Shown here one piece after another: positions 6,218-59,207 of a DNA stretch of 64,000 nucleotides. This stretch comes from Candidatus Bathyarchaeota archaeon (GTDB taxonomy: Archaea > Thermoproteota > Bathyarchaeia > 40CM-2-53-6 > RBG-13-38-9): NCBI GenBank assembly GCA_963807605.1, contig CAWECG010000003.1:448377-512376 (forward strand), written 5' to 3'. A program made the position numbers and the translations under genes. The notes under the pieces were generated by a model. The model was not told where the DNA came from. It worked only from the letters and a program-made list of their open reading frames with translations, and made no database searches. The stretch's first letter is position 1. Each line of letters opens with the position of its first letter.

Positions 6218-6406
6218 TTGCTTGTCCCTATTCTAGGGAAGTCTGCAATGGAACTTGATTTGGATTCATGGGAACAACGAGTCGCGAATCCAAAGGCGTT
6301 GGGTGATGCAGGGAAGACTCTGTGGAAGAAAATACAACCTGTTCTCAACGACGTTTTGGATGAGATAAAAAAGAACGGGAGAATTAACAATTTACGTAAA
6401 AGCTGA
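6218..6406 (+). CDS. small hypothetical protein (62 aa) abutting the downstream ORF
   Basis: Its stop TGA is immediately followed by the ATG of 6408..6926 in the +1 frame. It may be a partner protein or the N-terminal part of a frameshifted gene. Confidence 0.3.
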   Translation: MLVPILGKSAMELDLDSWEQRVANPKALGDAGKTLWKKIQPVLNDVLDEIKKNGRINNLRKS

Positions 6407-6407
6407 G

Positions 6408-6926
6408 ATGGACAGACTCAGTGGCCCAATCAAAATGCTTGAAGAAATAACCGCAACTTACAACACGGTAATCCATATCTTTGAGAGACCGCAGGAAGAG
6501 CGGTTGCGATTCTTCCAGGCAATCCAACCATTCGGTTTCGAAGAAGCTAGTGTGACCCGCATGCATCTAACGTTGGCGGTAGCGATCACTGTTCTTTCAA
6601 CAGAACTCTTCAAGCTAGTTCTGCTATTTCATATGAAAGATGTAAGCCCTGATGTCTCAAAATTCAATATCACAATGCAAAGTTCTGCTCCCAAAACTTG
6701 GCCGCTGCTCAAGCTTTTCGTTGACAATGATTTTCGCAACGCCTTAGCGCACGGTACGTACGCTATTGTCAACAAGAAGATTGTCCTCTACAGGGATACA
6801 ACGCTGATTCCATTTGAGGAAATGGAGCTTCACGAGTTCATGATGAGGAGCAAAGATCAGAATGTGCTGTTTCACTGCCTCTTCAATGTCTTAGCGGCTA
6901 AGAAAAGATTGGGCTTCTTCACTTGA
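6408..6926 (+). CDS. hypothetical protein with HEPN-like Rx4HG motif
   Basis: 172 aa, predicted mostly helical. Contains DNDFRNALAHGTY (R-x4-H-G..Y), which resembles the HEPN/HepT ribonuclease active-site motif R(N)xxxH.Y. Confidence 0.45.
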   Translation: MDRLSGPIKMLEEITATYNTVIHIFERPQEERLRFFQAIQPFGFEEASVTRMHLTLAVAITVLSTELFKLVLLFHMKDVSPDVSKFNITMQSSAPKTWPLLKLFVDNDFRNALAHGTYAIVNKKIVLYRDTTLIPFEEMELHEFMMRSKDQNVLFHCLFNVLAAKKRLGFFT

Positions 6927-9120: not shown

Positions 9121-9953
9121 ATGGTGTGTGCTCGCTCCGTGCAAACGTGGAGCGTCTTGACGTCAAAAGTTCTGCAGCGCTAGGCAGACGGGGATACCTT
9201 CTCTTTCTCTACAGGGGCGAGACGGTCTCTTCCCTTTCAAAGGAGGCGGTATCTCTCTCTAATAGTTCCAAGACACACACTAGCGCCCCAATATAAGATT
9301 GATACGGGTTCGTAAGGATAGTACCTTACTAAGCTACGGGCCCGCGCAGTAGCACCTACTCTCCTTTGCATTAAAAAAACCTTTCAGCAAAGCTGCTTAG
9401 AGGAAACAGAGCCTCGCCGTTGTGTACCCAATAATCGGCTATTTCATCTAGTCGGGCTATCCGCAAAAGCGACGAACGAGAAAGGCTTTAAAGTTACTCT
9501 GAAACCTATAGACAAGCTTGGCTGGACTAATAGGCCGTGCCCAACCGTCATGGGTGCATAGAGGTAGTATAGTCTGGCCTAGTAAGCCTAGAAAGGCCTA
9601 GAGTGTACGGCTGTCACCCGTACGACTTCCGATAGGAGGACGTGACGCGGGTCCAAATCCCGCCCTAAGGGGAGCGCTCAAAGCTCTCTCCTGGCGATGG
9701 GCGCCAACCTCATTGCCCGCGTTCACCACTCCAGAGGCAGTCGCTGAGCAGACTATTCTTTTGTGACCGCATGTGGCGGAAAGAATTGGCATCAACAAGC
9801 CAGCAGGTCAGTCATAGAGCTAATTGGTGTTCAGGTCATTCAACCCGTTCTGTAATAAATATCTTCATGCAACAAGGTTGTATCCAAGTGGACAACTATT
9901 CTCTTCGGGAGAAGGAATGTTGGAGCCTTATTCCAGAATTGAGTATATACAGA

Positions 9954-11070
9954 GCGCGCGGGGTTGTCCCGTTATTAGCGTTTTCATGTTAGGTTTGTCC
10001 AGTAGGTTATGCTTCTGGTTTTGGTGGGTTGTTTGGTGTTGTGTGAGGCTTCTATGGTGTAGAGGAGGCATAGTATGCAGTAGCTGATGTGGATGGTGAT
10101 GTTTTCTAGTCCTCGTGTCTTGTGGTTGTTGAGGTTGAGGTGTTCTTTGAGTGATGCGAAGACCAACTCGATGATGGAGCGTTTATTGTAGATGTGTTTG
10201 AGGTTTTCTGGGCCGTGTGTTTTGAAGTCGCTGGTTACTCTGAGGATGTTTTGTCTTTCAGGTTTCTGGTTGGCTGGGTAGGGTATCGCGGTCTTGATTC
10301 TGTGTTTTTTAGCGGTCTCTCTGAGTCTGTTGCTGGAGTATTGACTGTCAGCGGTTAGCTGTCGGATTCTGGTTGCTGTGGTTTTAACTGTCATTTTGAG
10401 GAGTGGTATGCTCGGTTTCTTCTCGTTAGTGTTTGCTGGTGTCACTAGGAATGTTAGGGGTGTGGCTGTGTCTGTATCGACTGTTAGGTGTAGTTTGTAG
10501 CCTAACCCGTATGTGCGGTAGGCTCTTCCTACACGTGCTTGAGGGTCACTGAAGCCTGTTCTATTGTTTATGTTTCGTCTGCTGTAGGCTTTGATGAAGG
10601 TGGCGTCCATAGCAACTATTCTTGGTGTTACATAGCGCTTCTTCAGTAATTTCTTGACCTGTTTGTTTACTATGCGTCTTAGTCTTCTTGTTCCTAGTCG
10701 CTGGTTGAATCTTGAGAGTACCGTCCTACCGTAGGCTGGCTCCTCATATCTTATGTCGCATATGTCACGTAGCCGCTCATCGATCCATAAGCGACGTTCA
10801 AGCTCACGCAGACTGTTTATTCTGAGGTAGCGTCTGGCAAGGTGTGCCTTGAAGAGTCCTAGAGGGTTACGTGGAGGTTTACCTGGACCTTCTTGATGAT
10901 AGCAACTAACAACTAGACGTTCAACAAATGATAAATCCAGATTACTCAGCAGTGACTCCAGAGTCTCGTACCCTTCTATCTGGAATCTCCTCCAAGTAGA
11001 AGGGTGCGGGGCTCAACCCTTATGGATCTTTCCGTGTCAACTCAAAGAATATCGGGACAACCCTGCGCGC
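9954..11070 (-). mobile_element. insertion sequence (~1.1 kb) with 23-bp terminal inverted repeats; IS4/IS5-superfamily DDE transposase
   Basis: Left end 9954-9976 'gcgcgcggggttgtcccgttatt'. The reverse complement of 11048-11070 is 'gcgcgcagggttgtcccgatatt' (21/23 identical). The single internal ORF is a DDE transposase. Flanks are ..caga| and |taga.., suggesting a short AGA-type target duplication. Confidence 0.65.
9984..10988 (-). CDS. IS4/IS5-family DDE transposase (no canonical start codon upstream of Met-126; possibly inactive)
   Basis: The ATG-initiated part (9984..10610) begins MDATFIKAYSRR.., typical of DDE_Tnp_1. The same frame stays open upstream to a TGA at ~10989 and encodes the usual N-terminal region (..GKPPRNPLGLFKAHLARRYL..), but with no ATG/GTG/TTG. 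Confidence 0.6.
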   Translation of the reverse strand, partial: RFQIEGYETLESLLSNLDLSFVERLVVSCYHQEGPGKPPRNPLGLFKAHLARRYLRINSLRELERRLWIDERLRDICDIRYEEPAYGRTVLSRFNQRLGTRRLRRIVNKQVKKLLKKRYVTPRIVAMDATFIKAYSRRNINNRTGFSDPQARVGRAYRTYGLGYKLHLTVDTDTATPLTFLVTPANTNEKKPSIPLLKMTVKTTATRIRQLTADSQYSSNRLRETAKKHRIKTAIPYPANQKPERQNILRVTSDFKTHGPENLKHIYNKRSIIELVFASLKEHLNLNNHKTRGLENITIHISYCILCLLYTIEASHNTKQPTKTRSITYWTNLT

Positions 11071-11326
11071 TAGAAGCCGAGACGATATCTGCATTAATCA
11101 TGGATGAGATGCCGATAGGAGTAGTGAACGATAAACCCGCTGGCGTAAGATTGATACCTGTCCCTAATAGAGAGTTGGCGACACTGTCAAGTTTGGGGGG
11201 TTGTTAGGAGAAACGATCATAATGCCTATCAGCACTTTCAGTTCAGCTAGATTCGTAAGGCGAGGAGGGCAGATTCCAGCCCCTATACTCAGCCTGACAG
11301 GATAACGAGATTGGAGTGAGTTTAAG

Positions 11327-12652: not shown

Positions 12653-12722
12653 ACTGAAGCGACTAGAAGAAGAACTAAATACTCAATGCAATCGAATAAC
12701 ACAGCGTTTTATCTGTGGGACT

Positions 12723-14003
12723 TTGATGAATTCACAACCCAAGACTCAGAGAGATCCTCCGGAAGAGAACGGTTCCAAGATATCGAGCGTCGATGGAGTA
12801 TTGACCGTTCCAGACAAGCCTACCGTCCCGTATATTGAAGGAGATGGAATAGGCCCTGACGTTATCGGAGCTGCCAGAAGAGTCTTGGATGCGGCTGTAG
12901 AAAAGGCGTACGGTTCTCGAAGAAAAATAGCTTGGCTTGAAGTACTAGCCGGCGAAAAGGCCAGACAGAAACATCGAGAGTCGCTACCCGAGGAGACTCT
13001 GAAAACGATTGAGGAATACGTGGTTGCTCTAAAGGGGCCTCTTGAGACCCCTATCGCCGGAGGTCACAGAAGCCTAAACGTTGCTCTAAGGCAGAGGCTG
13101 GACCTTTACTCATGTGTCAGACCTGTAAAGTACATTCTAACAGCACCAAGCAGAATGAAACGTCCCGAAGAGCTCGACATTGTAATCTTCAGGGAGAATA
13201 CAGAAGACGTCTACTCGGGTATTGAGTTCAAAGAAGGTTCTGAAGAGGCTAAGAGACTCATAATTTTTCTGAAAGAAGAATTGAAAAGTGAAATCAGGCC
13301 GGACTCTGCAGTGGGTATAAAGCCGATAAGCGAGTACGCGACCAAGAGGATAGTCAGAGCGGCCATAAATTATGCTATAAAGAATAACCGAAAGAGCGTC
13401 ACGATAGTCCACAAAGGAAACATAATGAAGTACACAGAAGGGGGCTTCATGCGCTGGGCCTACGAGGTTGCCAACAAGGAGTTTAAGGACAAGACCGTTA
13501 CCGAGGCGGAACTGACAAAAGCGGATGGCCCACACAAGGGTGTGATGCCTCCCGGAAAGATACTGGTGAAGGACAGACTCGCCGACAACATGTTCCAGCA
13601 GCTGATACTGAGAACAAGCGAATACGATGTTCTTGTTCTTCCAAACCTAAACGGCGACTATATCTCGGACATGGCTGCTGCTATGGCTGGAGGCCTTGGG
13701 CTTGCCCCAGGCGCAAACATAAACTACGAGACTGGTGTTGGCCTTTTTGAGCCTACGCACGGCACAGCCCCTACTTACGCAAATCAAGATAAGGTAAACC
13801 CGACCTCAGCGATTTTTTCTGGGGTGTTGTTGCTCAGACACTTGGGTTGGAAGGAAGCAGCAGACACAATAGAGAAGGCCGTAGCACGAACGGTAAGCCA
13901 GAGAAGAGTAACATATGATCTCGCGAGACAACTTGAAGGAGTCCAGCCGATAGGAACCTCGAAGTTTGCAGATGCGGTAATCGAGAATATGCAAGTGATC
14001 TAG
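12723..14003 (+). CDS. icd: NADP-dependent isocitrate dehydrogenase
   Basis: 426 aa with near-collinear prokaryotic IDH motifs: PYIEGDGIGPDV, GGHRSLNVALRQRLDLYSCVRPVKY, and NLNGDYISD. Confidence 0.9.
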   Translation: MMNSQPKTQRDPPEENGSKISSVDGVLTVPDKPTVPYIEGDGIGPDVIGAARRVLDAAVEKAYGSRRKIAWLEVLAGEKARQKHRESLPEETLKTIEEYVVALKGPLETPIAGGHRSLNVALRQRLDLYSCVRPVKYILTAPSRMKRPEELDIVIFRENTEDVYSGIEFKEGSEEAKRLIIFLKEELKSEIRPDSAVGIKPISEYATKRIVRAAINYAIKNNRKSVTIVHKGNIMKYTEGGFMRWAYEVANKEFKDKTVTEAELTKADGPHKGVMPPGKILVKDRLADNMFQQLILRTSEYDVLVLPNLNGDYISDMAAAMAGGLGLAPGANINYETGVGLFEPTHGTAPTYANQDKVNPTSAIFSGVLLLRHLGWKEAADTIEKAVARTVSQRRVTYDLARQLEGVQPIGTSKFADAVIENMQVI

Positions 14004-15528: not shown

Positions 15529-15852
15529 TTAGACCTTGACGCTGGGTCGCCTACGGCCCAACGCGTAGGTTATCAGCCCAACAATAAAAATAATGATCCC
15601 TGCTATTCCCCAGCCCATCCATGAAGAGTGCAAGTATTCATTCAGGTATAATGCCGCGGTTGCAAAGAGGAATATTATGCCTATGACGACGATGAAGATG
15701 CCCACGGCCATGAGCATGATTCGCTTGGCGATGTTCTGGATGAAGCCTATCAAGTAGTCTTTCAGTCTCTTGTCAACGTTTGATAAGATTTTACTCGCAA
15801 CAGCCGAGGAGAATATCTCGATTATATTCTCGAGGAGCCCTTCTTTGGGCAT
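15529..15852 (-). CDS. small membrane protein (2 TM)
   Basis: 107 aa with two long hydrophobic segments; separated by 3 nt from the next gene. Confidence 0.4.
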   Translation of the reverse strand: MPKEGLLENIIEIFSSAVASKILSNVDKRLKDYLIGFIQNIAKRIMLMAVGIFIVVIGIIFLFATAALYLNEYLHSSWMGWGIAGIIIFIVGLITYALGRRRPSVKV

Positions 15853-15854
15853 AT

Positions 15855-16049
15855 TCAGCTGCGCCTAGCTATTGAGCTGCCGATCAGGATGCCGACAACT
15901 ATTCCAGCGATGAATACGACACCGGCCGACTCCACGGGTCTCTTCTTAATCATCCCTTCAAGTTCTACCCTACTTCTCTCCGCGTACTCTTTAAGATCAC
16001 CAAGTCTCTTCTGGAGTTCCTCAAGGGTCAATTTTGACTTTTCAGCCAT
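15855..16049 (-). CDS. small tail-anchored protein (coiled-coil N-terminus plus C-terminal TM; YqjD/ElaB-like architecture)
   Basis: 64 aa: a charged helical N-half (LEELQKRLGDLKEYAERSRVELE) then VVFIAGIVVGILIGSSIARR. Confidence 0.4.
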   Translation of the reverse strand: MAEKSKLTLEELQKRLGDLKEYAERSRVELEGMIKKRPVESAGVVFIAGIVVGILIGSSIARRS

Positions 16050-16128
16050 CTTCTTTGACCTCCAATAATAGGTTTGATGTTGCCTATTGTATAAATGTGT
16101 TGCATGAAGGGTTAGGGCTGTGTTCTTT

Positions 16129-16332
16129 TTATTTGTCTGATCGGGGGTTCAACGCAATTCCAAGGGCAAACCCCAAGACGAAAGCCAAGGACAACGAGAG
16201 GAAGGGGTAGGTTTCGAATTTTCTTTCAACGTAGTCTATCTTTTCACGAATAATATCGCGTTGAAGTTCAAGAAGGTCCTCAATCTGTTCCTCAGAAAAG
16301 CTCTTGGAGGTTGTTCTTCGGGCTTTAGACAT
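16129..16332 (-). CDS. small tail-anchored protein, paralog of 15855..16049
   Basis: 67 aa with the same layout: charged helical N-half (EEQIEDLLELQRDIIREKIDYVERK) then FLSLSLAFVLGFALGIAL. Confidence 0.4.
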   Translation of the reverse strand: MSKARRTTSKSFSEEQIEDLLELQRDIIREKIDYVERKFETYPFLSLSLAFVLGFALGIALNPRSDK

Positions 16333-16403: not shown

Positions 16404-17175
16404 CTACGTCTTAGATCTTGCCTTCGGAATGTAAGAATAAAGCTTGGTTGCCGCAAGATGCGGCCCGATCTCAGAGATCACACCCGGCGCTTGTGTTCCC
16501 AGTTTGCATATGAGAATGGTGGATGCGAGGCTGAGTCGCTCAACTCTTACAATATCTTTTGCCAAGCCTGTTCTCTCAATAGCTCTATGAACCGAGTTGA
16601 TGGTTGAACCCAGAACTACTACCCTATCAAATGGGTATCGCTCCCAATCCTTGAAGTATGATTCCTGCCTATCTGTAAGTGCCAATGTCACTTTTCCAGC
16701 ATTCTCAAACCCTTCGATTCCTCACTTTGAGAGGTAAGCCGTCATGGAGGCAGAATCTTCTTGCTATCTGCCTAAGTGATTGAACCCAACCATCTGCAAG
16801 TTGGGCTCTCATCCGATAAAGCGGGTAGAGGCCATCAACTCTCTGTGGGGAAAGGATGCCCAGATCCAAGTACAGGCCATAGCCGACTTCTCCTGAATTC
16901 ACAATGAAGCCGCGATACGTATCGCCGAGTTCCAATTTTGAGAACTGAACGGGTGCTAATCCATAGTGATTTTTTAGAATCTCAGTGAAGACTTCGCTGT
17001 CTTCACCATTATAATCTATTGAAATCCAGCCTCCGGCTCCGGCCTCCATCTTTCCTATCCGGATCTGTAAGCCTGAGGAGATCTCTTCTAGATCTGACTC
17101 TAACTCTTGAAGTCCCTCGCGACTAGGGGTAGGGTCTAACTTCTCAGAAAGAACTGTCTTCATCAACTCAGCCAT
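16404..17175 (-). CDS. hypothetical protein, possibly one gene split by a frameshift (ORFs 16705..17175 and 16404..16691)
   Basis: Two same-strand ORFs are separated by 13 nt in different frames. Neither half matches a known family. The split is inferred by analogy with the confirmed frameshifts elsewhere in this window. Confidence 0.3.
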
Positions 17176-19483: not shown

Positions 19484-19934
19484 AGTCTATACCTCATCCT
19501 ATGCGTCTTAATTCCATTTTTCGTATCTCTTTCCTTCATCGATCATCGTTAATATGTTCTCTGTCTCGACGTGCTGTGCGTTGAGTTCCTGTCTAAGAGG
19601 ATGAAGCTGGCATTTTCAGCAGCTGAGTCGATGCAGCCTCCGGTGTCTCTCCTGACATCACGCTCTGCACCTTATGGGATTGCCTGTACACAGTCAACGT
19701 TTCCTCTTGCGCGTGCACAGCCGCCTCCCCCCCCACCCGACAGTCCCTTTCCCGTATCCTCTCTACGTAAACTTTCCATGAAGTCGTGTTGAACGGGAAT
19801 GTATGAGGTTGCTCCAAGTTGAGCCCCCCGAGGAAACGTTTCTTGTTAGTCATTATTCTCTGGTACGGGTGCAATCCTGAAAACGGTCGGAGTGCAACAG
19901 TTTAAGAAAAATTATCCGATGAAGATCTTATCAT

Positions 19935-22348: not shown

Positions 22349-24112
22349 ATGTTGAAAAGTCTCAGCAGAGTCTCCCTAGTTTTGGTGATGCTATCAATTT
22401 TATTTGCCTCAATAAACACCTCAATTGTGAGAGCACAACAGGTATCCGTTGGAACTGATAATACAACATACAGTGTTGGCGACCCAGTCAGGATAGGCAT
22501 TCTTCTCAGCGATATGGGTACGGCAAGCGTAGAAATGCATGTCAATACGCCTGGAGGGTCAGTTAGCTATGACCTCGGAACTATCGGCTCTGGAGCCTGG
22601 TACTACACTACATTGACTGGACTTACAGTAACCACCGGAACCTATAATGTGGAAGTTGACGCTATGTCCGGAGACGTGATATGGAAGGGTTACACGACCT
22701 TTTATGTTCAAGGCCCGGCCTTCGATTTTGCGATGACCGTTTCGCCGCCTACTCAGACGATAACTCAAGGAGGAACTGCCAATTTCCAAATTCTGATCAC
22801 TTACAGCAGTCAGGCCTACAGTGGAACCACCATCAACATTATATTGACCGGATTAGGCGCTGGAATGGACCATACTGTATCAAGCGGTGGCGCTCTTACT
22901 ATTCTTACGTCTGAAAACACTCCACCTGCAACCTATTCTATTATTATTACGGGATCAGCTGGTGGCATTACTCATCAGGCGAGCCTCACACTAACAGTAA
23001 CCCCAAGATTTGATTTTTCTGTCTCAATCTCGCCAACAACCCAGACAGTTACTATAGGTGATAAGACCTCTTACTCTGTTACGGTAAGTCTGGTGAGCGG
23101 CACTGCTGCCCCTGTCTCTCTGAGTGCCTCTGGCCTGCCTAGTGACGTAACCTTCAGTTTCTCACCCCCGACAGGCCTTCCAACCTTCACCTCAACCCTC
23201 ACAGTCGATGCCTCTGCAGCCACATCTGAAGGCGGTAACACCATCACGGTCATGGCGTCGAGTGGTACGAACTCCAGGACGGCTACTGCGACCCTTGTCG
23301 TAAAGAAAGAGGACTTTGCATTGTCGGCATCCCCTAACATGACCTCCGTCAGGAAAGGAGAGAAAGCAAACTTCAACCTGAATGTGAACCCTATAGGAGG
23401 CTTCAATCAACCCGTAACCTTCGCCATCTCAGGGCTCCCTAGCGGGGCATCTTCCACATTCGCCGTCCCATCGGGTAAACCTCCGTTGACTTCAGAGCTA
23501 GCGATAGACGTATCGTCATCGACCCCTGTGGGTAACTACTCACTAGCAATAGATGCATCTGGTGGAAACAAAACTCACTCCCTAACAGTTTCGCTAGTGG
23601 TAGAGAAGAAGATCAGCAGCCTGGAGATATCAGTCGACCACGGATTGCTCGGCGATGTAACTGTCTCAGGTAATCTAAAACCACCAGTTAAGAATGCGGA
23701 AGTCACTCTGTCTTACCATGGGCCCGAAGGAAAGGAGATGACTCGCAAGGCCACTGTTGACGCAGATGGCGCATTCAAAGATACGCTCTCGCCAGATCCG
23801 TCGGGCAACTGGACAGTCGCGGCAAAATGGCCCGGAAACGATGACTACGATAACTCGTCAAGTCAAACGGCATCATTCACTTCTCAGAAAGGAATCAACC
23901 TGGAAATGTTGTTATCTTTCCCTTACTTCATAATACCTCTAGTCGTGGCAGTGGTTATCGTCTCTGCAATCGCTGTGACAGTAGGTAGACGTCGTGCAAA
24001 GTCCAGAATCGTTCAACCCTCCGCGAAAGCAAACATATGTTCCAGATGCGGAACTCCAGTTACACCAGGAGACTTGTTCTGTCCAAACTGTGGATCAAGT
24101 ATCAGCGAGTAA
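22349..24112 (+). CDS. cell-surface protein with tandem Ser/Thr-rich Ig-like repeats, C-terminal TM and cytoplasmic zinc ribbon
   Basis: 587 aa. A signal peptide (VSLVLVMLSILFASINTSIVRAQQ) is followed by four or more ~100-aa repeats with the pattern S.SP.TQT.T.G..A.F....T.........TL.V..., then a TM helix (FPYFIIPLVVAVVIVSAIAVTV) and CSRCGTPVTPGDLFCPNCG. Confidence 0.6.
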   Translation: MLKSLSRVSLVLVMLSILFASINTSIVRAQQVSVGTDNTTYSVGDPVRIGILLSDMGTASVEMHVNTPGGSVSYDLGTIGSGAWYYTTLTGLTVTTGTYNVEVDAMSGDVIWKGYTTFYVQGPAFDFAMTVSPPTQTITQGGTANFQILITYSSQAYSGTTINIILTGLGAGMDHTVSSGGALTILTSENTPPATYSIIITGSAGGITHQASLTLTVTPRFDFSVSISPTTQTVTIGDKTSYSVTVSLVSGTAAPVSLSASGLPSDVTFSFSPPTGLPTFTSTLTVDASAATSEGGNTITVMASSGTNSRTATATLVVKKEDFALSASPNMTSVRKGEKANFNLNVNPIGGFNQPVTFAISGLPSGASSTFAVPSGKPPLTSELAIDVSSSTPVGNYSLAIDASGGNKTHSLTVSLVVEKKISSLEISVDHGLLGDVTVSGNLKPPVKNAEVTLSYHGPEGKEMTRKATVDADGAFKDTLSPDPSGNWTVAAKWPGNDDYDNSSSQTASFTSQKGINLEMLLSFPYFIIPLVVAVVIVSAIAVTVGRRRAKSRIVQPSAKANICSRCGTPVTPGDLFCPNCGSSISE

Positions 24113-24727: not shown

Positions 24728-25111
24728 TTGGCTAATAAGGCTCTTCGATCTATGAGGGGTATGCCATCGGGTAGGGATGCCCTTCGCATGATGCAACGAA
24801 TGGGTATGGAGACAAATCCAATAGAGGGCGTCAAAGATGTTACTATCCGAACGACTGAAAGAAAGATCATTATAGACGAACCTGCTGTGGTGTCTATTCG
24901 AATGCAAGGGCAATCCATCTTTCAAGTGGCCGGCGGGACCTTGAGGGAAGAGCCGATAACTGCGGGGTCCAAACCCATTATCCCTGAGGATGATATTGCC
25001 CTTGTCGCTCAGCAGGCTAATGTTACTTTGGGAGAAGCTAGGAGAGCCTTAGAGAGTTCTGGCGGAGACCTAGCCCAAGCCATTATCTCTTTAAAAAAGG
25101 AGAAATCTTAG
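24728..25111 (+). CDS. nac: nascent polypeptide-associated complex protein (NAC alpha homolog)
   Basis: 127 aa with a NAC domain (IEGVKDVTIRTTERKIIIDEPAVVSI) and a C-terminal UBA-like helix bundle (EDDIALVAQQANVTLGEARRALESSGGDLAQAI). Confidence 0.85.
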   Translation: MANKALRSMRGMPSGRDALRMMQRMGMETNPIEGVKDVTIRTTERKIIIDEPAVVSIRMQGQSIFQVAGGTLREEPITAGSKPIIPEDDIALVAQQANVTLGEARRALESSGGDLAQAIISLKKEKS

Positions 25112-25752
25112 CTCTCTTCTTCCAATCGTCTTTTTATCCTTTTAAGACGGAAGAAGTCCTCCCTTTCCCTTTCTTCAAGATACATCCTGATGAAACGTAT
25201 CGTATTGCTCATCCTCGGGATTATCACGTATTCTAGGCTGTTGACCCTTCTCTTGACCGATGCTATCGCTTCCGCGAGTTTTGTGAGAGCCGTCTCGATT
25301 CCTGCAAGTTCAGCTAGGGTCTTGACCGCTTCAATCATCGCTAATGTGGCCTCATCCAGTCTTGCAGATGTGTCGATGACGCTATATGGATAGCTGCTCA
25401 AAGGTTTGACCTCGATTTGTAAGTTCGGTATGGATACGCCAATCACGCTGCGGGTCTTTGCGACGACATCAAACCTATCTTCGACACCGTAGGCCAACTC
25501 TTGAAGTTTGGAGTATCCCATTATCATCTGCGCCTCAGAGAAGGCTGCGTATGCTACCTCTAGAGACTCCTGGGCTTTCGCTCTGAGGGAGGATATCTCC
25601 CTGACGAACTCGAAGAATTCCATCATCAGAGCGTCAAGCTTCTCTCTAAGAAGCTCTCTCCCTCTCTCGGCAATGTCCATCCTCTTTCTTAGAGCTAGAA
25701 GTTCCATCCTTGTAGGATGGACATTCATCAACTGCTCTGACATCGAGAGCAC
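25108..25752 (-). CDS. atpD: A/V-type ATP synthase subunit D
   Basis: NVHPTRMELLALRKRMDIAERGRELLREKLDAL is the canonical subunit-D N-terminus. The ORF track uses a GTG at 25752; the ATG at 25743 is the more likely start. Confidence 0.85.
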   Translation of the reverse strand: MLSMSEQLMNVHPTRMELLALRKRMDIAERGRELLREKLDALMMEFFEFVREISSLRAKAQESLEVAYAAFSEAQMIMGYSKLQELAYGVEDRFDVVAKTRSVIGVSIPNLQIEVKPLSSYPYSVIDTSARLDEATLAMIEAVKTLAELAGIETALTKLAEAIASVKRRVNSLEYVIIPRMSNTIRFIRMYLEEREREDFFRLKRIKRRLEEES

Positions 25753-27149
25753 TCAGTTCTTTGTCCTGTACTTCGGGTGGTGAATCTTGATAGTCTCCGG
25801 ATCTATCCTCTTCAGTTCGCTCTCAGGAAGCATTGAGAGAAGCTCCCAACCGAGATCTAAGTATCCTCAATCTCCCGGTTCTCGTATACTCCTTGCGTCA
25901 CAAATCTCCTCTCAAAGATGTCTGCGAACTTAAGGTACATCTTATCCCTTGAAGAGAGCGCCTCCTCACCGACGACTGCAACTAAATCTCTGAATCCCCT
26001 ACCTTCTGCGTAGGCATAATACAATTGGTCCGAGACCTCTCTGTGGTCTTCACGTGTTCTGCCCTTACCTATCCCTTCCTTCATGAGTCTTGAGAGAGAT
26101 GGTGAAACGTCTATTGGAGGATATACACCCCTTCTATAGAGACCTCTATCAACTATTATCTGTCCCTCCGTTATGTAACCTGTCAAGTCGGGTATGGGAT
26201 GTGTCATGTCATCGTGCGGCATAGTAAGGATGGGCATCTGAGTAACTGAGCCTTTGCTGCCGTGCGTTCTGCCGGCCCGTTCATAAATCGTTGAAAGATC
26301 CGTGTACAGGTAGCCGGGGTATCCTCTTCGTCCCGGGACCTCCTCCCTTGCTGCAGATATCTCTCTCAGGGCTTCACAATAATTCGTCATGTCGGTAAGT
26401 ATTATCAGAACATGCATTCCAAGTCGATGGGCAAAGAATTCCGCAGCTGTCAAGGCGATCCTTGGTGTCAGGATCCTCTCTATTGCGGGGTCCTCTGCCA
26501 AGTTCACGAATAGAGTGACGTGTTCAAAAGCGCCCTGCCTCTCGAAATCTTCTTTGAAGAACTGGGCCTCATCAGCCGTTATGCCCATGGCCGCGAAGAC
26601 TGTTGTAAAAGGCTCCTCGGTGCCTCTTACCTTTGCTTGACGCGCGATCTGTGCAACTATGGTGTTGTGTGGCAATCCTGACCCTGAGAAGATTGGTAGC
26701 TTCTGCCCCCTGACAAGCGTATTCATTCCATCTATTGTGGAGATTCCTGTCTGGATAAAGTCTCTAGGATACTCTCTCGCGTAGGGGTTGATTGGCGCCC
26801 CATGGACATCTAGATAGTCTTCCGCGATTATCTTGGGTCCGCCATCAATAGGTTCTCCACTGCCGTTGAAGACTCGGCCAAGCATGTCAGAGGAGACTGG
26901 TAGCCGGATAGTTTCACCGCTGAAAGACACCTTTGTTGTTGGGATATCTAGGTCCGAGGTGCCTTCAAAAACTTGGACGACGGCTATGTCTTCGCCAACT
27001 TCAAGAACCTGCCCCCGCCTCTCCAAGCCAGTTGGCGTAATTATCTTGGCGACTTCACCATATCCAACGCCCCGTACTGCTTTTACGAAGAGTAACGGGC
27101 CTGCTATCTCGCTTACTGTGCTGTATTCTCTTCCAAGCATTGTGGACAT
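25753..27149 (-). CDS. atpB: A/V-type ATP synthase subunit B (C-terminus interrupted by a 1-nt frameshift near 25857)
   Basis: The N-terminus [14 protein letters not shown] and the rest of the body are collinear with subunit B. The track ORF stops at ..ENREIEDT*, but the adjacent frame continues [31 protein letters not shown].., the expected subunit-B tail. The shift sits at 'gatacttagatc' (a tt versus ttt homopolymer). Confidence 0.85.
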
Positions 27150-28946
27150 CTAACGCATCCCTGCTGTAGCAAGAAGTTGTGAAGACAGCTGGCTGAATTG
27201 AACATCTATCTTCTTCAGGAGTTCCTTTGCAAAGACCTCGAAATCCTCAGAAGGCTGTATCTTCATCCTTGCAATCTCATCCTTTACGGGTAGCTCGAGT
27301 ATCCGCTGCAGAGGTACACCGCTTTCAGTAGCTTTCATCATCCCTCGGTGGAAGTTCATTATCACTTTGATCATATAGAAGCTCTTCTTAATGGGACAGA
27401 AGCTGTCAATGGGATGGACAGCGCTTTGCATGAGAAAATCTTCCTTTAGCATTCTGGCAACCTCTAGGGTCACTCTCTGGCTCTCGGATAAAGCGTCTGG
27501 ACCAACGAGCATCACTATCTCCCTAAGCTCCTCATCTCTCTGAAGTATCTGCATAACCTCACGGCGAAGGTCGACCCATTCTTCTCCAATTCCTTTTCTG
27601 TACCACCCCTCAAGGGGATCCAGGTAGAGTGAGTAGCTCGTTAACCAGCTTATAGCCGGGAAGTGTCTTCTCTCAGCCAGGGCTTTATCAAGAGCCCAGA
27701 AGACCTTGACTATGCGTAGAGTATTTTGAGTGACAGGTTCGGAGAAGTCGGATCCCGGAGGTGAGACCGCGCCCACCACCGATACTGACCCCAGATTAGA
27801 TTCGCTGCCTAGGATCTCGACTCTTCCTGCCCTCTCGTAGAACTCTGCGAGTCTTGAGGCAAGATAGGCAGGATAGCCCTCTTCTCCAGGCATCTCCTCA
27901 AGTCTGCCTGAGATCTCTCTTAGGGCTTCAGCCCATCGAGATGTCGAGTCAGCCATCAACGCCACATCGTAGCCCATATCCCTGAAATACTCACTCACCG
28001 TAATGCCGGTGTAGATGCTAGCCTCCCTCGCCGCGATAGGCATATTTGATGTGTTAGCGAATAGTATTGTACGCGCCATCAACTCCTGTCCTGAACGTGG
28101 ATCCTTAAGCTGTGGAAAACGCTCTAGAACCTCAGCCATCTCATTGCCTCTCTCACCACAACCAACATAGACTATGATGTCAGCGTCGGCCCATTGAGCC
28201 AGTTGATGCTGCATCACAGTCTTGCCTGTTCCAAAGCCCCCTGGAATAGCCGCAGTTCCACCCTTAGCGATTGGAAAGAGAAAGTCTATAATCCTCTGAC
28301 CTGTCACGAGCGGTGTGTCTGCTGGCACCTTTCTCTTAAATGGTCGGGCTCTCCGGACAGGCCATGTGTGCATGAGTCTGGCTGTAACCTTTCCGGATGG
28401 ACCGTCGATTGAGCATATATCATCCTCGACAGTGTAGTCTCCCTCGGAGACTATGCTTTTTATGGCGCCGGACACCTTGGGAGGCACTAGGATCCTGTGA
28501 TTAACGAGGACAGACTCCTTCACTGTCCCGAGAACGTCCCCAGATTGAATACTCGCCCCTTTCTTCTGAGTTGGTTTGAAGGCCCATTTCTTCTTGCGGT
28601 CCAACGCTGTGACTACAATGCCTCTCTCGATGAAGTCACCAGAGAGCTCTTTGATAACTGGTAGCGGCCTCTGAATTCCATCATAAGTCTGTCCGACTAT
28701 CCCAGGGCCAAGCTCGACCGATAGAGGTTTACCTGTTCGTTCTATCTTCTCTCCTGGCTTGATCCCGGTTGTCTCTTCATAGACCTGTATGGTCGCTCTG
28801 TCACCTTCGAGCCGTATGACCTCTCCTATGAGTCCGACTTCACCGACTTTGACAAGCTCATACATCAGCGACCCCGTCATGTTTTTGCCGACTACCACCG
28901 GCCCAGCAATATTCTCGATCTTTCCTGATTTGAACAAACATTTCAC
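27150..28946 (-). CDS. atpA: A/V-type ATP synthase catalytic subunit A
   Basis: 598 aa with a Walker A (GGFGTGKTV), the N-terminal beta-barrel and a subunit-A-specific non-homologous region. Translationally coupled to atpB (27149/27150). Confidence 0.9.
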
Positions 28947-29435
28947 CGGAAGCGTTTCATCAGCAAACCTACAAGTTGTCGTTCTAGATTCAGATAAAAC
29001 GAATTAAAGCTTTCTAACCACATAACGTCTTGATCGTGTGCATTCTTCTCAGAAATCTAGGAAGATCCTACTCTCCATGAATAGGTTTGCCGTCACTAGA
29101 AAATTGAAGGTGCATATCCTTCTCAGGCAACCATGGGGAAGGCCTTTCCAAATCTACAGGAGGCTCTAGTAAATGCAATTGGCAGCCCCCGCTTTTCTCC
29201 AATGATGCGCATGTAATGAGTGGTTTAGTTTCTTGACGCGCGCGCTCTCTCACATGGGAGGCAGAGTAAAGGCAGATTACCATCAAGATTTCATTGTGTC
29301 GTCGCCGACGGTTGAAGTCGATGGCACAGTGCTTATGGAAAAGGGAAAGTTGGATGCTCGATATATCAATTCAGGCAGACATATCCTTTGATGAGGATGG
29401 CTGAATGATAATGCTCAAGTCCCTTTGGAGACTGT

Positions 29436-29813
29436 TCAACAATCAGTTTTGCAGATAGCACAGTCTTTGAGAGAACGATCCCTTCGTCTGCAAAGTGGGC
29501 AGACCAATCCCTTCTTTCTGACCAGGTTGCAAGCCTCACACAGAGCTTGAACGAGTTGAGACCTAGAGATTTCTTTGCTGACAAGTCTGTTCGCTATCTT
29601 CGCAGTTAGGATTTGGATCTCTGGTATGTTTTCAAGATCTAAGGCTCTCCCTCTGACTTTCCTAATGTATTTGCTTATGGCTGCCTGTGTGATTCCAAGG
29701 AGTTTGGCTGCCTCTTTCTGTCTAAGACCATGTTCCTCAAGAAGCTTCTTGGCCAGAACTGCTCTCAAGGCCGGTGCCACTGATTTGACAACAGCTTCAC
29801 AGGGGACTGACAA
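29436..29813 (-). CDS. HTH transcriptional regulator with C-terminal Cys-rich metal-binding tail
   Basis: 125 aa with an HTH (QKEAAKLLGITQAAISKYI) and a C-terminus CEACNLV..CPLC..CAICKTDC (multiple C-x2-C pairs). Confidence 0.5.
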   Translation of the reverse strand: MSVPCEAVVKSVAPALRAVLAKKLLEEHGLRQKEAAKLLGITQAAISKYIRKVRGRALDLENIPEIQILTAKIANRLVSKEISRSQLVQALCEACNLVRKKGLVCPLCRRRDRSLKDCAICKTDC

Positions 29814-33924: not shown

Positions 33925-34370
33925 TTGAACAGAATACAAAATATTTGTCGAAGAACCATGCACCAGACTAATGAGAATTTGAAGTCCGCATTAACTGGTG
34001 AGTCGCAAGCCAACATGCGGTACATTATGTTTTCTGAAGTCGCCAAGCGAGAGGGATACGGCGAGCTTGCAAGTCATTTCAGAAGGACAACTGAAGAGGA
34101 GACAAAACATGCAAGAGCGCTGTTCGAGATGCTGTATCCACAGATATCCGCCAAGGACGCGTTGAAGATGGCTCTTGAGATCGAAACGCTTGAGACTAGA
34201 AGGTATTCAGAATATGCGGTAACAGCTGAGGAGGGAAGGTTCCTGATGCATCTGAACTCAAGAGGTTACTTAATGAAGCCAAGAAACATCTCGAAGAGTG
34301 CGTTGCAGCCGAGAAAGAACATTCAGAAGCCGCCAAGAAAGGCCTTGAGTTACTGTTTCCAGGAGTATGA
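33925..34370 (+). CDS. rubrerythrin-like ferritin-fold diiron protein (frameshifted near 34230)
   Basis: The N-half has E..E..Y and E..H helices (GESQANMRY..; EEETKHA), and the third helix ends ..ETRRYSEYAVTAEEG. The fourth E..H helix (AAEKEHSEAAKKGLELL) lies in the adjacent frame. The shift is at a gg/ggg run in 'gaggagggaagg'. Confidence 0.6.
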
Positions 34371-38318: not shown

Positions 38319-38849
38319 ATGTCTCGGATCTCATTCAGAGCCGCTTCGATTGTAAGAGGCATAACACGCGCGCTAACACAATTATACATATTAAACATTT
38401 CTTGGCAGTACTATAATTTGGAGAAGATCAATTTGCCATCTGAAGGTGTCTGCAGGTTCAGCGTATCGGCTCCTAGAAGCCTTGTTGAAGAATTTGACTC
38501 TGTCATCAAGAAGATAGGTTACGATAGGTCAAAAGCGATCCAAGCTGCAATGCGTATATTCCTAAACGATTACAAATGGACACATGACGTTGGAGGCAAT
38601 ATAGCTGGAGGTCTCGTAATGATCTACGACCACGAGATTCAAGGTTTGGAAGAAGACCTGACGGATGTCCAACACCGCTACCAGAACATAATCAGTTCGA
38701 CCACACATGTACATCTCGATGAACGTCACTGCCTTGAGATAATCCCGCTTAAAGGAGAGGCAAAACTCGCCAAGAAGCTGTCTGAGGAGATCATGACGAA
38801 AAGGGGAGTCAAACAGAGCAGGTTAGTGGCGATTACACAATCAACCTGA
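38319..38849 (+). CDS. nikR: nickel-responsive regulator NikR (RHH plus ACT-like Ni-binding domain)
   Basis: Collinear with NikR: an RHH domain (RFSVSAPRSLVEEFDSVIKKIGYDRSKAIQAAMRIFL) and the Ni site HVHLDERHC (H-x-H-x5-C). The likely real start is the TTG at 38433, as the track N-terminal extension has no counterpart. A TATA-like 'ctataatt' lies at 38412-38419. Confidence 0.85.
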   Translation: MSRISFRAASIVRGITRALTQLYILNISWQYYNLEKINLPSEGVCRFSVSAPRSLVEEFDSVIKKIGYDRSKAIQAAMRIFLNDYKWTHDVGGNIAGGLVMIYDHEIQGLEEDLTDVQHRYQNIISSTTHVHLDERHCLEIIPLKGEAKLAKKLSEEIMTKRGVKQSRLVAITQST

Positions 38850-43980: not shown

Positions 43981-44297
43981 TCACAAACGGACGATTGTTT
44001 TTGAGATGTAGCTCATGACAGAAGCGTGCGCGCTTGCGTCTCTATAGTGGTATTGAACGTCAGTGAGTGCTTCTTGGACTCCGTGGGATCGGTGGTCATA
44101 GGTTAACAGAACCGCGCATGCTTCAAGTTTGTTTTCTCTCCTTTCCATGTATAGTCTGTGATGAAGTTGCGCATGGCAACCTGCAACCCTTTCGATCGGT
44201 CTTTGTATCCTATTGCCCTGAGCGAATCATCAAATTGCTTCATCAACTTTGGAGGCGTAGAGAAGCTAAACTTGTCCACCTTCACCAAGAACGGCAC
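43981..44297 (-). pseudogene. nikR paralog disrupted by a frameshift (RHH intact; C-terminal domain out of frame)
   Basis: The track ORF 44103..44297 encodes only the RHH (FSFSTPPKLMKQFDDSLRAIGYKDRSKGLQVAMRNFI). The -1 frame continues VLLTYDHRSHGVQEALTDVQYHYRD, matching the NikR YDH..LTDVQ.RY block. The shift is at a gg/ggg run in 'gcgcggttctg'. The far C-terminus diverges further. Confidence 0.5.
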
Positions 44298-44459: not shown

Positions 44460-45233
44460 GTGCATATTCCGGATGGATATCTAGGGCCTTCAACGTTCAT
44501 TTTCTTCTACATATTCATGATCCCGTTATGGTTCGTAGCGTCTAGGAAAGTGGAGAAAAATCTCAAGACCAAGGAAATACCTTGGCTTGCTTTTGGAGTG
44601 GCCTTCTCATTCGTGATAATGATGTTCAACTTTCCCGCGCCTGGAGGAACAACGGGGCACGCGGTTGGGGCGGCTATCCTTGCATTAACCTTGGGGCCTT
44701 GGTTCGGGTTTCTGGGTGTTACAGGTGCGCTGCTAATTCAATGCCTCTTGTTTGGAGACGGAGGAATAACCACTTTCGCTGCTAACTCGTTCAACATGGG
44801 GCTAGTCATGTCCTTTGTCAGCTACTATGTCTACAAGTTGCTGGCTACTCGTGCTTCCGTTTTGTCGCGTCGGCGTTGGTTGGCGGCTGCGACATCCGGA
44901 TATGTTGGACTAAACGCCGCGGCTCTGTGCTGTGCGATAGAATTAGGTCTTCAGCCTCTACTGTACTACACTGCGAACGGCAGCCCTCTCTACGCTCCTT
45001 TCCCGCTATCTGTAACGATTCCCGCCATGTTGATTTCTCACATGTTTATTTTCGGGTTTGTCGACGCGGCTGCAACTGGTTTCTTGGTTTCCTACATAAT
45101 TCGTTCCGACCCATCAATGTTAGCACCTTCAATGGCGCAAAGCATTCCGGGCAGCCCGGTGGTGAATGAGCAGTCTCCAGCGCCAAAGCGTCAATTTTCA
45201 GAAGACTGTGGATGCTCCTCGCCGTTTTGGTAG
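44460..45233 (+). CDS. cbiM: ECF-type Ni/Co transporter substrate-capture component CbiM/NikM
   Basis: The N-terminus MHIPDGYL (the metal-ligating N-terminal His) and 6-7 TM helices. The C-terminal ~30 aa of the ORF overlap cbiN and are probably not real. Confidence 0.8.
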   Translation: MHIPDGYLGPSTFIFFYIFMIPLWFVASRKVEKNLKTKEIPWLAFGVAFSFVIMMFNFPAPGGTTGHAVGAAILALTLGPWFGFLGVTGALLIQCLLFGDGGITTFAANSFNMGLVMSFVSYYVYKLLATRASVLSRRRWLAAATSGYVGLNAAALCCAIELGLQPLLYYTANGSPLYAPFPLSVTIPAMLISHMFIFGFVDAAATGFLVSYIIRSDPSMLAPSMAQSIPGSPVVNEQSPAPKRQFSEDCGCSSPFW

Positions 45234-45532
45234 TACTGGTTCCCGTGGGTCTGTTGGCTCCGGGATCGGCGTTTGCCGAATGGAGTGCTTCCGAGCTGGA
45301 AACACTATTTGGGATCACGCCTCCTGCAGGGCTCACCAGCTTGGAAGGATTATACAATGCTCCTTTGAGTGGCTACAGCGTGCCTGGAGCAACGACCTTC
45401 ACCCAACTTAGCCTGGCGTATATCCTCGCAGCCGCCATTGGGGTATCTATTTTCGGTTTGTGTCTTTTCGCGTTCTACCGAGTTAAATCAAGAGCTATCG
45501 TCTCAGATGCTGTACCTCCAGAAGAGGCGTGA
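45212..45532 (+). CDS. cbiN: CbiN/NikN small membrane component
   Basis: 106 aa with two terminal TM helices flanking an extracytoplasmic loop, as in CbiN. Position is between cbiM and cbiQ. Confidence 0.55.
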   Translation: MLLAVLVVLVPVGLLAPGSAFAEWSASELETLFGITPPAGLTSLEGLYNAPLSGYSVPGATTFTQLSLAYILAAAIGVSIFGLCLFAFYRVKSRAIVSDAVPPEEA

Positions 45533-46483: not shown

Positions 46484-46524
46484 AATGACTCAAAGATAGT
46501 GGGCTCGTCTTCGAGCTACAGAAT

Positions 46525-48081: not shown

Positions 48082-48834
48082 TCATTTCTCTCCAGCGATA
48101 ATACCTATCGTTCCCACCATAAATGGCAATTTTAGCGCCAGAGGAATAAAGGCAGCTTCTCGTGTTTCTATAAATTGCGCGTTTCTTATCCCCCAACTTC
48201 GGATAGTCTCAATCAAATCAGCTGTATTGCCATATATCTGCCTCCGCAAGAACAAGTCCTGAAAGACAAATATTCCCCCCTTCTTAACCACACGCAATGC
48301 TTCCCGGATAACTTCTCGCTTATCTTTGGTGTCCCTCACTTCATGAAACACGAGATTGCTTACAACCGCATCAAAATACCCATCCTCAAATGGTAACGCC
48401 GAAGCGCTGGCTTTCTGGAAGGTTACACGCTCATCTACTCCTTCAATCTTCGCATTGCTTTCACATGTGTTTTTTGAGTATCCCCACCGTCTTCCCCAAG
48501 AGTCAATTCCCACAACCCGGCCTCTCGCATACTTTTGAGCAAGCTTGATCGTAAGGGCACCATTTCCACATCCTATATCCAATGCGCGCCCTTCTCCATT
48601 CCAATCCAAATGTGCCAAAACCAATTCAACGATATGGTCTTGGATATTCCCCCCTTGGGCAGAAAACTTGTATCGCGCATACGCACAATAGAGGGAAACT
48701 AGGAAGAACAAACCAGCAGGAATTACGAAGACTGGAAACAAAAGGGCAACCCCCAAAAACACGAGACCTGCAGCACCAGGAATATAGACTAGTCTCTTTG
48801 AGAGCCAGTTCCCGTATTCTGGCTTTCCTGCCAT
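48082..48834 (-). CDS. class I SAM-dependent methyltransferase with N-terminal membrane anchor
   Basis: Motif I (LDIGCGNGALTIKLAQ), motif II (VVGIDSW) and a later DAVVSNLVFHEV; two N-terminal hydrophobic helices. Flanked by repeat copies on both sides. Confidence 0.7.
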   Translation of the reverse strand: MAGKPEYGNWLSKRLVYIPGAAGLVFLGVALLFPVFVIPAGLFFLVSLYCAYARYKFSAQGGNIQDHIVELVLAHLDWNGEGRALDIGCGNGALTIKLAQKYARGRVVGIDSWGRRWGYSKNTCESNAKIEGVDERVTFQKASASALPFEDGYFDAVVSNLVFHEVRDTKDKREVIREALRVVKKGGIFVFQDLFLRRQIYGNTADLIETIRSWGIRNAQFIETREAAFIPLALKLPFMVGTIGIIAGEK

Positions 48835-58129: not shown

Positions 58130-59207
58130 TTCGCTCGACTCCTCTGGATCGCAAGAGTTCTTCGTACTGTGTCTTGAGGTGTGGTGGCAACTCGGCGTAC
58201 GTCCAGACGAAGAGGTCTTTGATCTCTTGAGGAGTAATGGATTCTGCCTTCTGGACGGCTTGTTGAACCTTTGCCATGGCTTCTGCTTGGACTCTCTTTT
58301 CGTACTCCTCATTCCAGAGTCCCTTGTGCTGCAGATACTTGCGTAACCTATCTACTGGATCTCGTTTGATCCATGCTTCCAACTCTTCCTTTGGCCTGTA
58401 TCTTGACGCGTCATCGGAGGTTGTATGGTCGGCTATTCTGTAGGTGACACACTCGATCATTGTGGGACCTTTGCCTGACCGGGCTTTCTCTAGAGCCTCT
58501 TTGGTAGCCTTGTACACGGCGAACACATCATTCCCATCAATTTGGATTCCTTCGAAGCCGTAAGCCAGCGCTTTCTGAGCTAACGTTTGCGAAGCAGTCT
58601 GTCGGCTTCTAGGGACCGATATTGCCCACTGATTATTCTCACATACGAAGACTATTGGTACCTTGAAGGTTCCGGCGAAATTAGAGCCTTCGTGAAAATC
58701 TCCTTTGGATGTTGCTCCGTCTCCAAGATAGACTAGGACCGCTTTTCGATCTCCTTTAAGTTTGGCGGCCCAGGCGAAACCGACTGCGTGAGGAATTTGG
58801 GTTCCCACGGGAACGGCGACGGTGAAGGCGTTAATGTTTTCTGGAATCTTATTCCCTCTTTCATCTCCGCCCCAATATTCATAGAGCATCTCCATCGGCA
58901 AACCCATGGCGATATATGCAGGATTTTCTCTAAACGATGGAAACATCCAGTCAGAACTCTCGAGAGCATACACGCTTGCCACCTGAGCAGCTTCCTGCCC
59001 CCTGGCTGAAGCATAGGTTCCGATCCTGCCTTCACGCTGCAACTTTACAGCAACATCATCGAAGGTTCTGGATAAGATCATCAATTCAAAAATTTCCTTG
59101 ATCTGGCTGTCAGATAGGTCAGGCTTCAGCGCTTCGTCACAATTTCCCTCCTCGTCAAGAATCTTCAAAATGGGAACATCGAATCTTGTGACAATCTCTC
59201 GTGGCAT
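58122..59207 (-). CDS. 2-oxoacid dehydrogenase E1 component alpha subunit (TPP-dependent)
   Basis: 361 aa with a TPP motif (GDGATSKGDFHEGSNFA ... ENNQWAIS) and a phosphorylation-loop-like region (YRIADHTTSDD). Confidence 0.85.
   Translation of the reverse strand: MPREIVTRFDVPILKILDEEGNCDEALKPDLSDSQIKEIFELMILSRTFDDVAVKLQREGRIGTYASARGQEAAQVASVYALESSDWMFPSFRENPAYIAMGLPMEMLYEYWGGDERGNKIPENINAFTVAVPVGTQIPHAVGFAWAAKLKGDRKAVLVYLGDGATSKGDFHEGSNFAGTFKVPIVFVCENNQWAISVPRSRQTASQTLAQKALAYGFEGIQIDGNDVFAVYKATKEALEKARSGKGPTMIECVTYRIADHTTSDDASRYRPKEELEAWIKRDPVDRLRKYLQHKGLWNEEYEKRVQAEAMAKVQQAVQKAESITPQEIKDLFVWTYAELPPHLKTQYEELLRSRGVERNG

Follow-up and report, generated by a model that had tools for sequence, protein, structure and literature searches.

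The atp genes and the break in atpB

We analyzed a 64-kb stretch of DNA (the window) from a 1,157,264-bp contig of an uncultured Bathyarchaeia MAG. The minus strand of the window carries atpA, atpB, and atpD in the same order as in L085 (JGI Ga0172362_10000047), a syntenic relative which we used as the reference for tblastn comparisons. atpA and atpD are intact (Table 1), and the atpD product is 85% identical to its L085 ortholog. The atpB gene, encoding subunit B of an A/V-type ATP synthase, matches the N-terminal beta-barrel and nucleotide-binding domains (PF02874 and PF00006), and its 430 residues show 92% identity to both P0002 and the L085 ortholog. The ORF ends with ...ENREIEDT at a premature TAG stop codon. 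The C-terminal domain (PF22919) does not lie in the same frame throughout, since the last 35 residues, with the conserved tail LDLGWELLS...RTKN, are readable in the -1 frame.

The closest full-length relatives, P0002, P0004, and P0005 (91 to 92% identity), are all 465 aa long and have the C terminus ...ENR[DN]I[DE][EQ]TLDLGW[DE]LL...HP[KR][HY]R... in a single frame. With the L085 AtpB as the tblastn query, residues 1 to 430 were found in frame -3 of the window and residues 414 to 465 in frame -2. A DNA alignment with three relatives placed the missing base at position 3 of a Thr codon or position 1 of a Leu codon, the window having GAT A-C TTA GAT versus ACC CTC GAC, ACG TTA GAC, and ACG CTG GAC in the relatives. 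The site consists of a T2 run (25860-25859) and a C at 25861, and one added base (AC[N]TTA, 25859-25861) gives an AtpB of 465 aa, equal in length to those of the relatives. Using the repaired protein as the query, we matched hundreds of Bathyarchaeia AtpB sequences, and a contig scan with the restored AtpB gave relatives with at most 75% identity among the matches listed. The frameshift was shared by none of the relatives. Compared with L085, the displaced tail has 16 synonymous and 8 nonsynonymous codon differences, which indicates that purifying selection has acted on the tail in its correct frame.

The ORF itself, the lengths of the relatives, the tblastn frame switch, and the DNA alignment thus confirm the initial annotation, which had read the atpB C terminus as out of frame. 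The repair proposed there, an extra T turning tt into ttt, is valid, but it is one among several equivalent 1-base repairs. The accompanying argument that an essential ATPase subunit is unlikely to be truly truncated is supported by the intact relatives, the conservation of the displaced tail, and the intact atpA and atpD. It is almost certain that the organism has a normal B subunit of 465 aa and that the truncation is not biological.

The top AtpB match by score, P0001, comes from a 2497-bp contig in ENA and is 704 aa long, a stretch of about 240 residues being duplicated internally. This protein probably results from misassembly in a different public data set.

Other frame-breaking indels in the window

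Candidate frame switches on the same strand were located with a codon-usage model run across the window, and we compared each one with intact relatives. Alignment to these relatives revealed at least seven frame-breaking indels in 64 kb, comprising five deletions (four of 1 nt and one of 2 nt) and two insertions. On average there is one lesion in about 9 kb, and the lesions hit at least 10% of the genes. At all seven sites the 1- to 2-nt indel is independent of the others and absent from close relatives, and the displaced frames are still conserved without secondary decay, the pattern expected of assembly indels. Identity to the relatives did not change across the lesions; the values before and after were 90% and 89% for cbiM, 88% and 88% for the nikR paralog, and 66% and 66% for the DUF2110 gene.

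In the DUF2110 gene, Pfam placed the N-terminal and central domains in the ORF at 16705..17175 and the C-terminal domain in the ORF at 16404..16691. Its counterpart in L085 is a single 253-aa gene, which tblastn matched to frames -2 and -3 of the window. The ORF pair 6218/6408 is likewise one gene. P0200 (226 aa) aligned end to end with the fused reading at 97% identity, and the junction is KKNGRI followed by NNL.. in the window versus KKNGRIETIYVKAEM in the homolog. We had also considered a change from A5 to A6 at 6369 and rejected it, since P0200 shows the 2-nt deletion further downstream.

The lesion in the rubrerythrin-family gene lies in a G3/A2 stretch. Five homologs (P0158 to P0162, 119 to 162 aa) follow the shifted frame to ...KKGLELLFPGV. 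Four of them are full length, three having 138 to 139 aa and P0162 (162 aa) a longer N terminus. Pfam matched the N-terminal half only, in the original and in the repaired protein, and the repair was settled by the homolog search.

Three lesions are grouped in a 3.3-kb nikR-cbiM-cbiO stretch. The nikR paralog reads GAGAAAA-CAAAC in the window versus GAGAAAA[A/G]CAAAC in six relatives. The split cbiM-PDGLE gene corresponds to single in-frame proteins of 358 to 364 aa in the relatives, and the insertion in cbiO removes the true start, leaving an ORF of 258 aa versus 271 to 275 aa. NikR, CbiM-PDGLE, and CbiO are all intact in L092, L094, L098, L102, and L121. The fusion of CbiM with a PDGLE (CbiN-like) domain in one protein of about 360 aa was seen in this Bathyarchaeia clade (relatives L092 to L121).

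Three further candidates were dropped. A second or third frameshift in the C-terminal domain of the nikR paralog, suggested by a HELHLKNN motif in another frame, was rejected since the relatives show a loss of homology at 44034. The ORFs at 15529..15864 and 15855..16148 are two separate small genes in L085. For the ORF trio at 1097-1592, Pfam gave no support to a frameshift.

The initial annotation had claimed at least three homopolymer frameshifts in conserved genes. The contig-wide pattern stands and extends to at least seven sites, but the homopolymer cause is only partly supported (see below). The break in the rubrerythrin gene, given there as gg/ggg near 34232, is real. So is the one in the nikR paralog, but the gg near 44099 to which it was assigned is the wrong site; being downstream of the in-frame stop codon at 44105..44103, it is unable to restore the frame. 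Two suspected cases, the split ORFs at 16404-17175 and the pair 6218/6408, proved to be frameshifted genes. A third suspect, a transposase ORF that lacks a start codon, gave no sign of a frameshift. Its 342-codon frame (11012..9984, minus strand) has a full DDE_Tnp_1 and DUF772 match. No ATG, GTG, or TTG occurs among the first 134 codons, and upstream we found no ORF in a different frame. The transposase frame lies in an IS4/IS5-type element (9953-11071) whose 24-nt inverted repeats at 9953-9976 and 11048-11071 are 92% complementary.

Table 1. Features of the atp locus, frame-breaking lesions, a control site, and Logan contigs in the window
Feature	Position in window	Strand	Observation
atpA	27150..28937	minus	intact, 595 aa from a TTG start; 87% identity to the L085 ortholog, full length
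atpB, residues 1-430	25857..27149	minus	ends at premature TAG 25859..25857
atpB frameshift site	25859..25861	minus	1 base absent in GAT AC[N] TTA GAT
Out-of-frame atpB tail	25753..25860	minus	35 residues and TGA in the -1 frame
atpD	25108..25743	minus	intact, 211 aa; PF01813; identical in Logan contig L083
Split gene, ORFs 6218..6406 and 6408..6926	6385..6386	plus	2 nt absent; P0200
DUF2110 gene (16404..17163), split	16718..16719	minus	1 extra base; AGG AA TCG vs AGG ATT GAG in a relative
Rubrerythrin-family gene (33958..34370 when restored)	34233..34237	plus	1 base absent in GGGAA; homologs
nikR paralog	44132..44135	minus	1 base absent in an A4 run (T4 on the plus strand); A5 or AAAAG in relatives
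cbiM-PDGLE fusion gene (44460..45532), split	45190..45191	plus	1 base absent; GCG-TCA vs GCG[C/T]TCA in 5/5 relatives
cbiO	46492..46494	plus	extra A at codon 4; ATG ACT CAA AGA TAG vs ATG GCT CAA GAT ...
Control site, E1-alpha A4 run	58297..58300	minus	A4 in the window gives the conserved 361-aa protein
Logan L081	11045-14652		5671 nt, so expected end 16715; no differences
Logan L090	18509..16719		no differences
Logan L083	25833..19386		no differences
Logan L089	29634..26461		one synonymous SNP
Logan L084	29637-36067		one SNP
Logan L171	44082..39335		100% identical; no differences
Logan L082	59143..53927		one indel

Comparison with an independent k-mer assembly

Proteins of the window were found by exact sequence in two places, the source contig in NCBI/ENA, for which the truncated 430-aa AtpB is also recorded, and the Logan k-mer assembly of run ERR10755942. 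Exact-sequence look-ups with the 598-aa AtpA, the 257-aa CbiM, and the ORF at 48082..48834 gave no match. We infer that ERR10755942 is the read set used for the MAG contig. Seven Logan contigs were retrieved for an independent comparison, and they were 99.97 to 100% identical to the window across about 31 kb. Logan is built with k=31, drops singleton k-mers, and omits contigs of up to 150 bp from its output (PMC12424806), so that unresolved bubbles show up as gaps.

Four lesion sites, those of DUF2110, atpB, the rubrerythrin gene, and the nikR paralog, lie in or beside the retrieved contigs. Logan breaks at or near three of them and agrees with the window at the fourth, the rubrerythrin site. 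The DUF2110 site is flanked by contig ends at 16719 (L090) and at the expected 16715 (L081), the nearest being 1 nt away, while a contig end lies 26 nt from the atpB site (25833) and another lies 52 nt from the nikR site (44082). With 13 known Logan contig ends in 53 kb, we calculated a chance of about 4e-4 that three of six sites would lie within 54 nt of one. At or beside the DUF2110, atpB, and nikR sites, but not at the rubrerythrin site, more than one sequence therefore appears to be present among the reads. We take the graph breaks to reflect ambiguous reads or mixed strains, and k-mers common to related strains can likewise cause breaks in conserved genes such as atpB.

We looked for Logan fragments of atpB spanning 25834-26460, in the intact and in the shifted version, and found none. 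Such a contig probably does not exist, because Logan leaves out the pieces of a bubble if they do not exceed 150 bp. Look-ups of public and Logan contigs also recovered none that spans the atpB site with an intact allele. Neither CbiQ nor CbiO, in the exact form encoded by the window, was present in Logan, a hint that the Logan sequence is different or interrupted there as well.

At the rubrerythrin site, L084 passes unbranched with an identical frameshift. This frameshift, reproduced by an independent assembly, may be either genuine or a systematic error at the level of the reads.

An A run in an E1-alpha gene served as a control site. The window has A4, giving the conserved protein, whereas L082 has A5 (position 846-850) and a junk C terminus. 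At this site the error lies in Logan and not in the window, and Logan is thus no gold standard. The discrepancy also indicates that noise or variants in run length exist among the reads. The 363-aa Logan product with the junk C terminus (P0128) is now recorded as a protein.

Other differences were few. The SNP in L089 is a synonymous A/G in atpB at 26694, the SNP in L084 is a C/T at 31081 (Ser/Leu in an aminotransferase ORF), and a 2-nt gap at 29635-29636 separates two abutting Logan contigs. Together they point to a second closely related strain in the sample.

Genuine gene loss and remnants

Not every odd structure in the window is an artefact, since real remnants are also present. The nikR paralog (43981-44297), which is located upstream of cbiM, loses homology to the six relatives at 44034 (minus strand), and its 3' third, the last 49 codons or so, is gone. 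The junction is contained in Logan L171, and the truncation at 44034 is therefore real. In the six relatives the nikR-cbiMQO cluster sits in another genomic context, which makes 44034 a rearrangement breakpoint. An intact nikR copy (176 aa with a full NikR_C domain) is found at 38319..38849.

Two more remnants were found at positions where L085 has complete genes. One is the last 65 codons or so of a URO-D (MtaA-like) methyltransferase gene (19514-19707, minus strand), which lie in two frames and are identical in Logan L083. The other is a NicX/Peptidase_M29-like remnant of 37 codons (29248-29358, plus strand). Between atpA and the ORF at 29938, the window also lacks the GTPase and Flg_new_2 genes of L085. 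The URO-D and NicX losses and the missing L085 genes are real deletions. The nikR paralog and the URO-D and NicX remnants thus have the features of genuine pseudogenes, and atpB does not.

Origin of the frameshifts

The seven indels are most likely for the most part artefacts, consensus errors rather than biology. For atpB in particular, we consider it likely that the break is a 1-base deletion from consensus building in a long-read metagenome assembly; a contig of 1,157,264 bp from a complex community points to long reads. Consensus indels would have formed in short runs of 1 to 5 nt where the reads disagree, and not at long homopolymers. This is supported by the number of lesions, as seven single-lesion frameshifts in 64 kb are far above the level of a functional genome. 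All seven are single and "fresh," with no further stops or substitutions downstream, which argues against decay, as decay gives lesions of mixed age. The E1-alpha disagreement between the two assemblies indicates that indel noise exists in the read set. Confidence differs among the sites. We are highly confident that the atpB and DUF2110 lesions are artefactual. Those at 6385, in cbiM, and in cbiO probably are, too. For the A-run lesion of the nikR paralog the balance tips slightly to the same side, and for the rubrerythrin lesion it is even.

A mixed outcome, with artefacts at atpB, DUF2110, and probably 6385 and true, very recent pseudogenes in the rubrerythrin gene and the nikR-cbiM-cbiO locus, is possible, although we favor it less. 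The k-mer assembly crosses the rubrerythrin site unbranched with the same sequence, and the real 3' truncation of the nikR paralog adjoins its frameshift. With an intact nikR elsewhere, the paralog and the transporter could be dispensable. The clustering of three lesions within 3.3 kb likewise means that some nonessential genes in this locus could be true fresh pseudogenes. However, if ERR10755942 consists of the same noisy reads, both assemblers would repeat a systematic strand or context error. In the cbi genes, divergence is not elevated beyond the lesions, and the absence of the CbiQ and CbiO products of the window from Logan hints at a difference or break there.

The initial annotation had attributed the breaks to systematic homopolymer under-calling, as with Ion Torrent or older nanopore chemistry. 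We regard it as unlikely that this explains all of them. Four of the seven lesions are 1-base deletions, each of which could be described as a run losing one base: T3 to T2 or C2 to C1 in atpB, G4 to G3 or A3 to A2 in the rubrerythrin gene, A5 to A4 in the nikR paralog, and T2 to T1 or a lone C in cbiM. By our own estimate, however, about 44% of deletions in runs of 1 to 3 nt are compatible with a homopolymer change by chance. One lesion is a 2-nt deletion, and two are insertions (A1 to A2 in DUF2110 and A2 to A3 in cbiO). All seven lie in runs of 1 to 5 bases and could be expressed as a change in run length, which for such short runs is near what chance would give. The longest run involved is A4/A5, and the errors are not mostly deletions in long homopolymers. 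A platform that shortens homopolymers systematically would break long runs first. We checked the 42 runs of at least 6 nt in the window, and none was tied to a frameshift; many of them sit within long intact ORFs. The run-length spectrum of the window matches a shuffled control and looks random, and the window is correct at the E1-alpha A4 run. The explanation is therefore only partly right, given the insertions and the clean long runs. An artefact remains likely, but neither uniform under-calling nor a tie to long homopolymers holds. Errors in short runs and in both directions are less suggestive of classic homopolymer compression than of low coverage, strand-specific ambiguity in basecalling, or a consensus drawn from mixed strains.

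That the frameshifts are all genuine recent mutations, in a lineage that is decaying or has segregating alleles, with atpB truly truncated in the sequenced strain, seems improbable to us. Genuine loss does occur in the window, with the nikR truncation found in both assemblies and the URO-D and NicX remnants, and the rubrerythrin frameshift is also the same in both. Three lesions are grouped in the nikR-cbiMQO locus, and the Logan graph breaks could be two real alleles. Yet atpB is essential and its partners are intact, a null allele of it at high frequency in a natural population is implausible, and real decay would have given lesions of mixed ages in place of seven fresh single ones. More improbable still is a natural population of Bathyarchaeia in which the frameshifted alleles segregate at an appreciable frequency and whose lineage is undergoing rapid gene inactivation. 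The inactivation would then cover the rubrerythrin gene, the nikR-cbiMQO nickel/cobalt uptake locus, DUF2110, and even atpB, and the k-mer graph breaks would mark coexisting intact and null alleles.

Programmed frameshifting is known from bacterial prfB (+1) and Sulfolobus fucA (-1). Programmed recoding of atpB, by -1 ribosomal frameshifting or transcriptional slippage yielding a full-length AtpB, is hardly credible: the only resemblance is that two overlapping frames encode one conserved protein and meet at a stop codon (ACU UAG), superficially as at shift-at-stop sites, but GAU ACU UAG AUC has neither an X XXY YYZ slippery heptamer nor an A/T slippage run, the shift needed is -1/+2 and not +1 as at stop-codon sites, AtpB is encoded in a single frame in all relatives, and breaks of various kinds, in both directions, affect six further unrelated genes.

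Comparison with known assembly errors and implications

Indel errors in long-read (nanopore) assemblies reportedly truncate predicted proteins, as Watson and Warr are said to have described in Nat Biotechnol in 2019. Such indel errors were reportedly also a subject of Sereika et al. in Nat Methods in 2022. MAG workflows based on nanopore reads only, with Flye and Medaka, have been described (PMC12313526). The window resembles assemblies of this kind in having many single-lesion frameshifts per contig, with the displaced frames conserved and ORFs shorter than their homologs, and in belonging to a megabase-sized contig from a complex community. It differs from the classic nanopore signature of deletions in long homopolymers, since its long runs are clean and its lesions, insertions included, lie in runs of 1 to 5 nt. 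The indel pattern is a familiar long-read assembly problem and not a new biological feature. In the nikR truncation and the URO-D and NicX remnants, the window also holds structures like genuine archaeal pseudogenes. Those show loss of homology and large deletions, whereas the atpB-type lesions are isolated 1- to 2-nt indels in genes under purifying selection.

If the indel density holds, at least 10% of the genes in this public MAG contig are truncated or split in protein databases. A 430-aa AtpB, a split DUF2110 protein, fragments of 52 aa and 172 aa, and a 258-aa CbiO are already recorded as proteins. Metabolic reconstructions or pseudogene counts from this genome would mislead. "Homopolymer error" is too narrow as a filter, as the errors here fall in short runs, at places where strains or read strands are probably in conflict, and artefacts and true decay need to be separated site by site given the real remnants nearby. 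The value of the analysis lies in flagging a public Bathyarchaeia genome as indel-rich.

Two minor observations concern other parts of the window. ARAGORN found no tRNA genes in the whole 64 kb. In L085, a TnpB-like gene (Cas12f1-like_TNB; 12634-13695) is located between the NAC gene and a PUA gene, and the corresponding position of the window (22349-24112) encodes a repeat-rich protein of 587 aa that carries a zinc ribbon at its C terminus.
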